Shown here: in pieces, positions 5,394 to 8,962 of the stretch
How positions within the stretch are numbered: the stretch's first letter is position 1
Layout: each line of letters begins with the position of its first letter
Origin: an uncultured archaeon
Lineage (GTDB): Archaea > Asgardarchaeota > Thorarchaeia > Thorarchaeales > Thorarchaeaceae
Reading direction: 5' to 3'
Assembly (NCBI GenBank): GCA_964458565.1
Contig: CAYWJO010000004.1
Location: 1 to 64,000 of the forward strand
Length of the DNA: 64,000 bases
The notes under the pieces: model-generated
Told to the model about the DNA's origin: nothing
What the model saw: the letters and a program-made list of their open reading frames with translations, nothing else
The model's database searches: none
Translations under genes and position numbers: made by a program

Positions 5394-5837
5394 GTGAATC
5401 CACAAATCCAGCCCATCGATATCAAGTCGACGCTCACACACGAGGTGACTACGAAATTAAACCCCGAGGTGAGTGTGTTCTCCAGTGGCCATAAGGCCAA
5501 TTTCACTGAGACTGCGTATACTGAGTATCCTTCTTTTGAATGTCTTGCGGAGTCATTCTTCAGATTAGCAGAATCTAGAATGAGTGACACAATGAAGCTT
5601 CTTTTGAAGATGTGTGCGCAACTACTAAGGTTCCATACACTCACTGTCACTGCTTTGGCAGATCAGCTCTCTCAGCGGAGCTCTGTACCTTACTCGACAG
5701 TAAAGTGGAATCTACGACTTTTAATGAAGCTGGGTCTGCTAGTTGGTGGTGATGCTGAGAATAGAGGACAAAGAGCGTTCTTGACGCCTGCCGCCTCTAT
5801 GCTAATTCACTATCTATCTAAAAGTAATGATATGTGA
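5394..5837 (+). CDS. Winged helix-turn-helix protein (start uncertain)
   Basis: C-terminal TVTALADQLS...PYSTVKWNLRLLMKLGLL...FLTP wHTH pattern. Confidence 0.7.
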   Translation: MNPQIQPIDIKSTLTHEVTTKLNPEVSVFSSGHKANFTETAYTEYPSFECLAESFFRLAESRMSDTMKLLLKMCAQLLRFHTLTVTALADQLSQRSSVPYSTVKWNLRLLMKLGLLVGGDAENRGQRAFLTPAASMLIHYLSKSNDM

Positions 5838-5866
5838 GAGAGGATTACCTCTCTCTCATTTTTTTT
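5835..5866 (+). terminator. Hairpin plus T-tract terminator
   Basis: GAGAGAGG-atta-CCTCTCTC followed by an 8-T run immediately after the stop codon. Confidence 0.6.
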
Positions 5867-5896
5867 CAACTTGAAGGATAAGGGTGCTGCCCTTCT

Positions 5897-5934
5897 CTCG
5901 ACCAATACAGCTGTGCTTTACATTTTGGTGTCAT
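5897..5934 (-). promoter_or_regulatory. Candidate SECIS element (eukaryote/Loki-type kink-turn core)
   Basis: Minus strand reads AUGAC-ACCAAAAUG-UAAAGCACAGC-UGUAUUGGU-CGAG: AUGA/GA core, ~9-bp helix, AAA in the apical loop. Confidence 0.6.
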
Positions 5935-6734
5935 GGAACCTTCTTGTCAAATATCTTCCATCCATCTTCTAGTTGAGAGTTGGCATCTTCAATAGTTTCA
6001 GCGGCAGACATGATAATTCTCACATTTCTGCTCTCCCCATTTTGAAGATCTCCTAAATTCCATTGAAGCCCAATTGCCACATCTCTGGGTCCTAGTTCAG
6101 ATGTTCCATTGAGGTCGCGTAGTTCCTCTGTGATATTCAGTTTTGTCGGTGATGCGACTGTCCAACAGTTAGGATTTGGGTATGAGTCTATTGCAACATG
6201 TAAAGGAGTATCATCATAAACATACATTATCCCCCTTTCCGAATCGAATTTTCCAAAATCATTTTTGTATGATTTTGGTCCACCAATATCGAAATCCATG
6301 AAGCTATAGACTCTCATATCTCTGATATTACCACCACTGATGTTAGTGCTAGAGAACCTCATCAGCATGTAGGGTTTGTTTCGGCTCCATGCGTCTATGT
6401 CGAATTTCATCTTGGGTTTTACATCCTCCAGAGGAATATGTTCGAGTGATACGCGAAGTAGGCCATCACTAGCTTCATTCTTCATCATCATGAAAGATTT
6501 GCTCTCAGTTGAAGAACTGAAACATGTTGTTTCATCTACTACATATGAGGTCCAGAATCCGCTTTTGTAATCAGCGGGATTCTTTAGCAACAGACGTTCG
6601 ACACCAGACCTGTCAATCAAACCAAGTCGTCTAACAAAGAATCCTTTGCGACCTTTTCCTCATGACACGCAATCGACATCATAGGAGATGTCCAATCGAG
6701 GGTAGTGAGTACCGGTTTCTAAGACTTCAGTCAT
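5931..6734 (-). CDS. Putative selenoprotein (267 aa; Sec at codon 25 in CxxU), beta-rich domain of unknown function
   Basis: ATG 6734 gives MTEVLETGTHYPRLDISYDVDCVS-TGA(6662..6660)-GKGRKGFFVRRLGLIDRSG..., in frame with track ORF 5931..6620; SECIS-like hairpin at the 3' end. Confidence 0.75.
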
Positions 6735-6889
6735 CTTTTTGTCACAGTCCTGTGCTATAACCATAAGGTTGATGGTTGGATTTAAATCTAGTTTCATATT
6801 CCTGTTTTATAAATGAAACAGCTTGACTAGGTCATAAAATTGATAAACTGTCCAATAGAGATTTTCACTGAATTTAAGGTGCGCACTAA

Positions 6890-8125
6890 ATGACTGAACT
6901 TACTCCTGAACAACTTCAGAAATGGTATCGTAACCAGATGAAGAAGAAATCAAAAGACTTCATCAAACAAGCAGAGCGGAGCTATAAAATTGTGGAGTCC
7001 GCGCTCAAAGATATAGAATCTGTATCTCGAGACCTGAAAGAAGCAGATGAAGACGAAGAAGGTGATACCATGACCATCGCAGCTAGATTCGCGCTTAAAA
7101 TTAATGATATTGTTGAGAATTTTTACGTTCAATCTGATATTACTTATCAGGGAACAGAAGCTTTGCAAGAAAATATCAATCAGTTCATCTCTGGACTTTG
7201 GGGTGCAGGAGCTCGATGGATTCGTCGACTGGATAAGAAACACAAGAACACCATAAAGCAGCTTGATATTTACATGAAGGAGCTGATGCGGGAAGTCAAA
7301 CGACTGGGTAAGCTTCTATATGAGTTCAGTTGGTTGAAAGACCTTGAGCGTATTGGCACCAGAATCCAGACACTTGAGGAGTTGAGTTTCAGTAAACAAA
7401 TCTATGAGGAGCAAATTGGAACTGTTAAACTTAAGATTCAACAGGCAGCTGCTGATTTCCAGAAAGCACAGGCTTCTTACCAAGATTTTCGACAATCATC
7501 AAATGTTGGAGACCTTCTCACTCTTGATGATGAAGCGGAGCATTTAGGTGCACTACTCAGAATGAAACTGAATCCACTAAAAAAACAGGTGAAGAAATTT
7601 CTCCAGAAAGATACGGGAGTTAGAGTTGCTCCCGCAGGTCAAAAGGCGCTGCTTGAATATTGGGAAGATCCCTTCACAATCATTGTAGAGGAACCCGATG
7701 GATATCCTGCATTGATTTCGGGATTGGAGGGTCTCAGGGAGGCTATTGATAAAGGGCGTCTGTCGTTAAAAGACCGCCTAGCTCGAAGAGCGATTGAAGA
7801 AATCGATGATCTCAAGGGGGGTTCACTACGAGAGATACAAATCAAAGCTAAAGAAATAGAGGAAAAACGACGAACTTACGCAGGTTCTGATGTCTATGCG
7901 AAGAATGATGCACTAGCAAAGTCTGTTGAAGAAGCATCAAAGAACCTTGATTATCACAAGAACGATCTTCTCAGAATTCGAGATGACATACAGCGTGAAT
8001 TGGACCGAGTTGAAGACTATCGAAAGCGAATTGAATCTGAAATATACGAATCCTTTGGAGCTAAAATCAAACTGATACTGGAAATATCCCTCGAACCCTT
8101 ACTTGCCAAGTGCATAGTCCAATAG
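6890..8125 (+). CDS. Coiled-coil protein, unknown function
   Basis: 411 aa, K/E/Q-rich heptad pattern; abuts dtdA. Confidence 0.8.
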   Translation: MTELTPEQLQKWYRNQMKKKSKDFIKQAERSYKIVESALKDIESVSRDLKEADEDEEGDTMTIAARFALKINDIVENFYVQSDITYQGTEALQENINQFISGLWGAGARWIRRLDKKHKNTIKQLDIYMKELMREVKRLGKLLYEFSWLKDLERIGTRIQTLEELSFSKQIYEEQIGTVKLKIQQAAADFQKAQASYQDFRQSSNVGDLLTLDDEAEHLGALLRMKLNPLKKQVKKFLQKDTGVRVAPAGQKALLEYWEDPFTIIVEEPDGYPALISGLEGLREAIDKGRLSLKDRLARRAIEEIDDLKGGSLREIQIKAKEIEEKRRTYAGSDVYAKNDALAKSVEEASKNLDYHKNDLLRIRDDIQRELDRVEDYRKRIESEIYESFGAKIKLILEISLEPLLAKCIVQ

Positions 8126-8962
8126 ATGGTAGTTTCAATGAAAATCTTAGTGACTTCTGAAAAAGACCCTGCGAGTCTAAATATGAAAGAGGTTTTCATT
8201 GATGAGTATGGGTTTAAACCAACTGAAGAAACCTTTGAAGATAACGTAGTATACTCTTGGAAACAAGACATCAAACTGATTACTTCTAAACGTGATATGA
8301 TTCACTGTGACCACTTGGAAGCGACCTACAATCCTGAGTTCTTCATCTTCTGCTCACGACATAGGGCACAATCTGGGAAACCTGCATTTCTTGTTCATAG
8401 CACAGGTAATTTTGGTGAGGATTCTTCTTTTGGAGGTAAACCATTCAGCCTATCTGTTTCTGCTCCTTCGATTGTTGCACAGGCATTACTGAGTCTGAAA
8501 CGAGAAAGAGATAAACGTGGATTAAATGAATTTGATGTCACAATGGAAGTCACACACCATGGTCCAACAGAGATGAATACGCCTCTTGTCTTTATCGAAC
8601 TAGGAAGTGATGAGTTCTTCTGGGAGCACAAAGATGGTGCTCAAGCAGTAGCTGCATCTATTATTGATTGCATAACCACTTCAAAAAACGAATCATCTTC
8701 AATTGGTTTTGGAGGGACTCATTATGCAAGCAAGTTCAACAAATTGATTCTTGAAAGAGGTGCTATTATTGGACATATCGCCCCAAAATATGCTTTAGAT
8801 AAGATACATCCGAGCGTGGTGAAGCAGATGATACTGCGATCCATGAGTGTAGTTGAAACTGCAATCATCGATTGGAAGGGTACAAATGCATCTCAGAAAG
8901 AGCATCTTTTTCCTATTCTTCAAGATCTTGGAATTGAAGTAATGAAAGCTAGAGACTTCTAA
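8126..8962 (+). CDS. dtdA: D-aminoacyl-tRNA deacylase (archaeal DTD2/GEK1 type)
   Basis: S..DPAS.N, SRH...SG.P...VH.TGN, EVTHHGPT, FIELGS, GFGG.HYA. Confidence 0.93.
   Translation: MVVSMKILVTSEKDPASLNMKEVFIDEYGFKPTEETFEDNVVYSWKQDIKLITSKRDMIHCDHLEATYNPEFFIFCSRHRAQSGKPAFLVHSTGNFGEDSSFGGKPFSLSVSAPSIVAQALLSLKRERDKRGLNEFDVTMEVTHHGPTEMNTPLVFIELGSDEFFWEHKDGAQAVAASIIDCITTSKNESSSIGFGGTHYASKFNKLILERGAIIGHIAPKYALDKIHPSVVKQMILRSMSVVETAIIDWKGTNASQKEHLFPILQDLGIEVMKARDF

Follow-up and report, generated by a model that had tools for sequence, protein, structure and literature searches.

The question raised by this locus, which lies in a 64,000-nucleotide stretch of DNA from an uncultured archaeon of the Thorarchaeia (the window), is whether an in-frame TGA near the beginning of a minus-strand ORF ends translation or is read as selenocysteine (Sec). 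The standard ORF call for the CDS 5931..6734 starts at a TTG (6620) downstream of this TGA. The initial annotation had extended the frame upstream, through the TGA at 6662..6660 to an ATG at 6734, giving a read-through N-terminus containing CVSU, and when the minus strand was re-read all of these coordinates proved correct. The extended ORF has exactly one in-frame TGA, within the motif C22-V-S-U25-G (Table 1), while elsewhere in the genome TGA is an ordinary stop, terminating 475 of the 1,503 frames of at least 300 codons. The explanation that best accounts for the data, and which we regard as very probable, is a 267-residue selenoprotein of a new Asgard-specific family, in which UGA-25 would be decoded by means of a SECIS element and a stand-alone supersandwich domain would carry a proposed redox-active Sec25.

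Table 1. Positions of the predicted selenoprotein gene and its associated elements in the window, and of genes for Sec insertion elsewhere in the genome.
Feature	Position	Strand	Remarks
Full predicted selenoprotein CDS	5931..6734	(-)	267 residues plus stop; ATG 6734..6732 to terminal TGA 5933..5931
UGA codon 25, predicted to be read as selenocysteine	6662..6660	(-)	Conserved in orthologs; invariant column of the family-wide alignment
Cys22 codon, proposed resolving partner in C-x-x-U	6671..6669	(-)	Invariant in the 23-sequence Thor-type alignment
Conserved 5′ leader block AGCACAGGAC	6756..6747	(-)	Contains AGGA; AGCAYAGGWA at the same distance in orthologs
TATA-like box ATTTAAAT	6787..6780	(-)	-53..-46 from the ATG; about 10 nt further upstream than the box of the initial annotation
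Putative SECIS, core and upper stem-loop	5897..5934	(-)	AUGA 5934..5931 contains the stop codon
Putative SECIS, 5′ helix arm	5929..5922	(-)	Pairs with 3′ arm 5908..5901
Putative SECIS, apical loop	5921..5909	(-)	13 nt, starts GUAAAG
Putative SECIS, GAG	5899..5897	(-)	3′ of the helix
Second hairpin AAGGG-CAGCA-CCCUU	5880..5894	(-)	3′ side of the SECIS internal loop; in all orthologs
Lower stem closing the putative SECIS	5873..5943	(-)	Coding GAAGG (5943..5939) pairs with CCUUC (5877..5873)
PSTK-like gene	Contig C1, 17876-18592		
tRNA-Sec	Contig C1, 18648-18738		
SepSecS	Contig C1, 19450-20571		
SelB-like gene	Contig C1, 21209-22105		

A protein search returned 12 homologs of 180-241 residues, in all of which the annotated start lies beyond the TGA, in agreement with the initial annotation, which had proposed that gene callers truncate the protein. 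For two of these 12 the DNA was read, and the same ATG was found, followed by the TGA at codon 25 and by conserved residues on both sides of it. Moreover, a scan of species-representative genomes gave 25 loci, nearly all labelled Thorarchaeota, and the 24 that were complete all had the ATG (TTG in one), the TGA at codon 25 within E-C-x-[S/T]-U-G and a terminal TGA at codon 267-269. In total, TGA occupied codon 25 in all 27 orthologs read at the DNA level, with lengths of 266-268 residues and the same terminal TGA, a constancy well beyond what chance would give. An alignment of 23 sequences presented 13 invariant positions in the N-terminal 31 residues, including C22 and U25; around TGA-25 these were M1, E3, T7, G8, P12, R13, D15, Y18, C22, G26, G28 and G31. 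Furthermore, a scan of 400 genomes of the Asgard phylum detected a homolog in 209 of them, and in 69 of the 85 genomes belonging to the window's own family (f1), where 60 of the 61 near-full-length matches contained exactly one TGA. The single exception, from genome G344, had TGT (Cys) at codon 25. Conservation on both sides of the TGA, with the TGA aligned to TGA or to Cys, had been suggested as a check on the selenoprotein reading, and this is the pattern that the homologs showed. The TGT-bearing gene (L060, at G344:C61:11905-12702, minus strand) is the sole Thor-type Cys-25 ortholog; it ends in CGAUGA and has kept a weakened SECIS-like helix, and it looks like a recent switch from Sec to Cys.

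Selection on the two sides of the TGA was compared by the Nei-Gojobori method. Codons 1-24 gave a pS of 0.66 and a pN of 0.17 (pN/pS about 0.26), and codons 26-60 a pS of 0.62 and a pN of 0.18 (pN/pS about 0.30); as the ratios are alike, the segment preceding the TGA is under the same protein-level constraint as that following it. These data bear on two of the alternatives. According to the first, the locus yields two products, a leader peptide of 24 residues ending at the TGA and a protein starting downstream of it (TTG 6620), as in the annotations of all 12 database homologs; ORFs of 46 and 66 residues ending at the TGA are likewise present in protein databases. However, the stretch from the TGA to the called starts (residues 26-38) is conserved, G26, G28 and G31 being invariant, the called starts differ among orthologs, and no start codon is conserved within this stretch. 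The equal selection on both sides, the natural Cys replacements that give one continuous ORF and the presence of a SECIS also speak against separate products, an arrangement that we judge to be very improbable.

According to the second alternative, the TGA would be a recent disruption of a Cys codon, in a pseudogene or through an assembly error, for which a change of one base (TGT to TGA) would suffice, and one ortholog does present TGT. Nevertheless, about 60 species-level genomes and several divergent subfamilies share the TGA, no relaxation of selection was seen, and independent assemblies agree, since three other salt-marsh samples gave contigs with the same TGA-25. A sequencing error, which the initial annotation had named as a way in which the claim could fail, is excluded by this conservation and by the agreement between assemblies, so that a disrupted gene retains next to no probability and is already refuted by the conservation data. 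The only difference in the three salt-marsh contigs was a plus-strand C>T at position 6680 of the window (D19N); Asn at residue 19 was also seen in one ortholog.

The reading of UGA-25 as Sec would involve a signal in the 3′ region of the gene, and decoding would be directed by a eukaryote-like SECIS that begins at the end of the ORF. All 27 genes end in TGA, preceded by A (G in one), and in the 27 orthologs the AUGA is followed in the same order by a single base, a helix of 8 bp, a loop of 13 nt starting with GUAAAG, the return strand, a further base and GAG, with AUGA and GA invariant or nearly so. The AUGA of the predicted kink-turn core would thus combine the third base of the last sense codon with the terminal UGA stop, and it is because of this overlap that every ortholog ends in [A/G]-UGA. 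Exactly the 8-bp helix was predicted by RNAalifold, with compensatory double changes at all eight pairs and 94.9% of cells paired, and none of 500 shuffles reached the observed covariation score; when the partner strand was slid by 1-3 columns, pairing fell from 79.6% to about 40-46%. In the second hairpin, two-sided changes occur at four of the five pairs and pairing reaches 75.6% of cells, with a varying alignment register, while pairing of the lower stem was found in about two thirds of the orthologs (63% of cells). The lower stem and the second hairpin are less well supported than the upper helix. Overall, the interpretation of the 3′ element as a eukaryote-like SECIS directing Sec insertion at UGA-25 is supported by these sequence comparisons. 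The terminal UGA would still terminate translation, presumably since it lies inside the SECIS, without spacing from it; a minimal UGA-SECIS spacing is known in eukaryotes, and this is the basis for supposing that the terminal UGA stays a stop.

A scan of positions 5400..7000 with Rfam at E<=10 scored no SECIS family, the eukaryotic model included, and gave only chance-level matches. A covariance model built from the family retrieved from the genome this locus (43.8 bits) and only one further match of 18 bits (150 of 1,331 candidates scored), the model being too family-specific to detect other SECIS elements. The 18-bit match lies at G000:C27:25075-25115 (E about 6.6). Two other candidates for the signal were discarded. 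A euryarchaeal-type SECIS with a GAA_A bulge was considered in the second hairpin, where GAA occurs in the window and is not conserved in orthologs. The other candidate was a hairpin at 5832..5857, which comes after the convergent gene's stop and has no AUGA in some orthologs. The latter hairpin is GA/CU-rich and adjoins the stop of the convergent ORF 5394..5837; a run of A8 lies before it in the minus-strand reading, which on the plus strand becomes T8 following the hairpin. It has the appearance of a terminator of that ORF, and two orthologous loci also have a hairpin at this position.

The same genome offers a second gene with which the layout can be compared, a vhuU-like gene on contig C22 (about 6900..7060) with its Sec codon at about 7054..7052 and its stop at 6970..6968. 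In its SECIS, GGAUGA spans the UGA stop of the gene itself; a helix of 10-11 bp with a GAAAG loop comes next, then GGA and a second hairpin, and the lower stem is derived from coding sequence. This is the same stop-overlapping arrangement in three parts (lower stem, upper stem-loop and second hairpin) as in the new gene. The motif of the vhuU-like protein is ..C-Y-D-C-U-L-S-C-G-A-H... Moreover, an AUGA_GA kink-turn core with an A-rich apical loop is described for the eSECIS-like elements of Asgard archaea, and G[U/G]AAA loops for frhA in Thorarchaeia (Huang et al. 2024, PMC11227280); both the AUGA/GA core and the G-U-A-A-A loop of the new gene match the features given for Thorarchaeia.

With regard to the decoding machinery, UGA-25 would be decoded as Sec by the archaeon's own archaeal/eukaryote-type system, composed of tRNA-Sec, PSTK, SepSecS, SelD and a SelB/EFsec-like factor. 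The presence of such components had been suggested as a further check, and SelD, PSTK, SepSecS, a SelB-like gene and tRNA-Sec were all found in the genome. The PSTK-like gene, tRNA-Sec, SepSecS and the SelB-like gene form one compact cluster within 5 kb (contig C1, 17876..22105), and SelD, on contig C2, has an in-frame TGA of its own. A third alternative is that the UGA is read through by a residue other than Sec, for instance a near-cognate Cys or Trp, with the 3′ structure serving another purpose. Read-through by other residues occurs when selenium is limiting, and one database entry carries W at position 25. However, this lone W, which could have been taken for the Trp or random residue named beforehand as evidence against the claim, is an artefact of the translation table, the TGA having been translated as W by the gene caller. 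In addition, the genome contains the complete Sec machinery, the 3′ AUGA/GA core and A-rich loop are as in Asgard SECIS elements and in the vhuU of the same genome, and homologs replace the codon by Cys only, leaving non-Sec read-through as a very unlikely explanation.

The Sec reading can also be followed into more distant relatives. Four other Asgard families (f21, f22, f23 and f30) gave stop-free matches in the phylum scan, covering residues ~30-260 or 100-260, and in the upstream DNA of these homologs the frame continues through a TGA at the aligned position in f22, f23 and f30. In f22, where the motif is F-N-x-x-x-A-T-U-N, the TGA was present in 14 of the 16 genes sampled, and a Loki-type SECIS (AAUGAUUCAAAUAAAAAA...UUAUUUGAUGA) with compensatory changes was found 11-32 nt after the stop in 15 of the 16. 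A strong GGAGGT stands 7-10 nt before an ATA, GTG, TTG or ATG located 12-13 codons upstream of the TGA, a placement that makes sense only if translation starts before the TGA. In eight f22 loci (L069, L070, L072, L074-L077 and L079) the segment preceding the TGA has no ATG, GTG or TTG and the GGAGGT precedes ATA, which suggests the use of ATA start codons in this lineage. Two further f22 loci, L071 and L073, have no TGA-containing N-terminal segment, yet a well-formed SECIS follows them; in L073 a Met is in frame just before the aligned Sec position.

The f30 homologs carry L-C-S-K-U and an element of the form AUGA-9 bp-loop-9 bp-GA, with a UAA stop inside the apical loop. In f23 the motif is F-D-Y-V-C-x-x-U, and no AUGA/GA element was recognised in the 3′ ends; three f23 loci (L062, L084 and L085) have the CxxU TGA together with a common long 3′ hairpin, CCCAAG-UAGCC-CUUGGG, which resembles the second hairpin of the Thor-type SECIS. 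The f21 homologs, which include those of single-contig genomes of 6.04 and 4.3 Mb, have Cys at the Sec position (D-Y-E-T-I-C-x-x-C), and a SECIS was not found in any of four genes. As the f21 genomes have SepSecS, the Sec trait itself has not been lost, and the Cys form reflects a choice at the level of the family. Metagenomic relatives present CxQCxxC or CxxC at the aligned site, and in an alignment of 33 sequences from all groups only six columns were invariant, one of them being the U/C position.

The CxxU motif on which the initial annotation was based stood in the Thor-type proteins and failed as a universal feature. The Cys at -3 is present in Thor-type, f23, f30 and f21 sequences and mostly absent in f22, the largest Loki-type subfamily, so that Sec itself, and not the CxxU pair, is universal. 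Moreover, all 21 Loki-type sequences have a Cys 1-3 residues from the end of the C-terminal tail, including those of f22 without the Cys at -3.

The protein had been expected to be a beta-sandwich and not a thioredoxin fold, and the structural analyses (AlphaFold2, Foldseek and VIA-align) agree on an all-beta supersandwich. The AlphaFold2 model, built with the alignment of orthologs, was all-beta with a pLDDT of 85.7 and a pTM of 0.87, confidence being lowest at residues 24-26, in the turn between the strands 13-22 and 29-40. Sec25 would occupy the C-x-x-U-G turn, which forms the tip of the first beta-hairpin. Foldseek matched the model to galactose-mutarotase-like N-domains of the GH15/GH94 type with E-values from 1e-9 to 1e-6, and VIA-align (model residues 1-267) gave Z-scores of 20-23, with an rmsd of about 2.5 Å over 226-237 residues and 10-14% identity. 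The matches were to the N-terminal supersandwich of GH15 glucodextranase/glucoamylase, GH94 phosphorylases, cyclic glucan synthase and GH116, the N-domains of GH15 (1ug9, 1lf6) and GH94 (3s4c, 3qde) having the same fold over the whole protein. In contrast to the GH15/GH94 enzymes, which have an (alpha/alpha)6 catalytic domain, the new protein is predicted to stand alone, with an N-terminal hairpin tip bearing Sec or Cys, and a fold in common with these N-domains does not show a common function. No Pfam or NCBIfam model matched the protein at E<=1, and its ESM-Atlas neighbours were all clusters of "hypothetical protein" from Asgard archaea. A profile search of 1.8 billion representatives returned 111 matches. 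The remote ones are long proteins of several domains (transglutaminase, PKD, CarboxypepD_reg), similar to the new protein over residues ~104-260 only, with no GH fusions among them. As judged from these searches, no relatives are known outside Asgard-type proteins. No obvious signal peptide or membrane segment was seen when the sequence was read by eye.

Regarding the chemistry, Sec25 is proposed to be a redox-active or nucleophilic centre that would cycle through a selenenylsulfide with a resolving Cys, the latter being Cys22 in the Thor-type proteins and probably the Cys near the end of the C-terminal tail in the Loki-type relatives. A partner Cys is always available and its position shifts, which favours such cycling, since a movable partner Cys is typical of the resolving cysteines of thiol or selenol redox enzymes. 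The assignment of Sec25 as a redox selenol with a resolving Cys is inferred by motif logic only. As in the CxxU/UxxC redox selenoproteins, Sec is three residues from a Cys, and the Loki-type relatives, with their Cys 1-3 residues from the C-terminus, recall enzymes with a mobile C-terminal redox Cys such as the thioredoxin reductase tail. However, the motif is placed on a beta-hairpin turn, and not at the N-terminus of a thioredoxin-fold helix as in the CxxU redox selenoproteins. The main rival to the redox reading concerns function only: in a genuine selenoprotein, Sec25 and Cys22 would form a metal-binding knuckle, structural or sensing, instead of a redox pair. A C-x-x-[C/U]-G at the tip of a beta-hairpin resembles rubredoxin or zinc knuckles, and one metagenomic group has CxQCxxC. 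Nevertheless, most f22 members keep Sec without the Cys at -3, neither a second knuckle nor a conserved set of His/Cys appears in the Thor-type alignment, and the shifting partner Cys is of the resolving kind, so that metal binding is possible but on balance unlikely.

The genes around the locus were also considered. Neighbours conserved among the Thor-type genomes are a D-aminoacyl-tRNA deacylase, a 411-residue coiled-coil protein, a convergent gene of about 130-147 residues and a RimK-like ATP-grasp protein, and Pfam identified in the window only the D-aminoacyl-tRNA deacylase, the RimK-like ATP-grasp and a weak Mrr-like match; this neighbourhood gives no functional clue. The 411-residue protein (6890..8125, plus strand), apparently coiled-coil and without an assigned family, is followed by the D-aminoacyl-tRNA deacylase (8126..8962, plus strand), and the pair is divergent from the selenoprotein gene, an arrangement conserved in Thor-type genomes. 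In f21 and f22, the gene was found directly downstream, on the same strand, of a gene for a Ras-family GTPase of about 325 residues in all six genome loci, and a Ras-family GTPase gene was also upstream on one metagenomic contig (loci L089-L092, L094, L095 and L086 overall). Among these GTPases, Pfam recognised an N-terminal Roadblock/LC7 domain in the two f21 proteins only. In the window's genome, no ortholog or neighbour with a Roadblock-Ras fusion was found, only generic Ras-domain matches of about 35% identity. The Loki-type operon with a Roadblock-Ras GTPase hints at a link between selenium chemistry and eukaryote-like signalling proteins. A wider reading, in which this would be an ancient Asgard selenoprotein family, accompanied in its Loki-type members by the Roadblock-Ras GTPase and acting as a selenium-dependent redox sensor or regulator of eukaryote-like GTPase signalling and not as a metabolic enzyme, is offered as a doubtful conjecture.

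The initial annotation had supposed the family to be undescribed, which is supported by the lack of Pfam and NCBIfam matches and by its absence from the selenoproteome surveys of 2016-2026 (PMC4989117, PMC9723677, PMC11291895, PMC11227280, PMC13188914). Five selenoprotein families were described in Loki (Mariotti 2016, PMC4989117), of which later studies reported subsets (Sun 2021, PMC9723677; Valentin-Alvarado 2024, PMC11291895). More than 400 Asgard genomes were then searched, by homology to known families only, giving seven families (Huang 2024, PMC11227280), a list repeated in a review of May 2026 (PMC13188914). These seven, which have eSECIS-like elements, are VhuU/FrhA, VhuD/FrhD, HdrA, SelD, Prx-like, AhpF-N-like and DsbA-like (PMC4989117, PMC11227280). 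The new gene appears to be recoded as theirs are, through an in-frame UGA, a kink-turn AUGA_GA SECIS with an A-rich loop on the 3′ side and the same machinery. Its protein is unrelated to them, the predicted fold being an all-beta supersandwich as opposed to thioredoxin-like, flavoprotein, hydrogenase or SelD folds. None of these 2016-2026 surveys gives a selenoprotein with a supersandwich of the GH15/GH94 type. Judged on sequence evidence, the family is genuine, had not been described before, is widespread in Thor- and Loki-type Asgard archaea and employs the standard Asgard Sec-insertion system. It would be the eighth Asgard selenoprotein family, in archaeal selenoproteomes that were thought to be small and essentially complete, and it indicates that lineage-specific families are missed by homology-only searches and that gene callers systematically truncate such proteins at the UGA. 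Furthermore, it would supply dozens of new examples of stop-overlapping SECIS elements, which bear on the evolution of the eukaryotic SECIS.

Finally, the region preceding the ATG was compared among orthologs. The AGGA that had been reported upstream of the ATG is present at 6751..6748, 14 nt before it, inside a block conserved in orthologs, and this leader block may be a start-site region or a candidate ribosome-binding site. The promoter-like box AACCTTAT of the initial annotation (6770..6763) is present as well but is not conserved in orthologs, and it is probably not the real promoter box. In contrast, an A/T box matching the TATA-like box of Table 1 (TTTATATC or CTTTTAAC) was found at -51..-44 in all orthologs, and the TATA-like box is the probable promoter.
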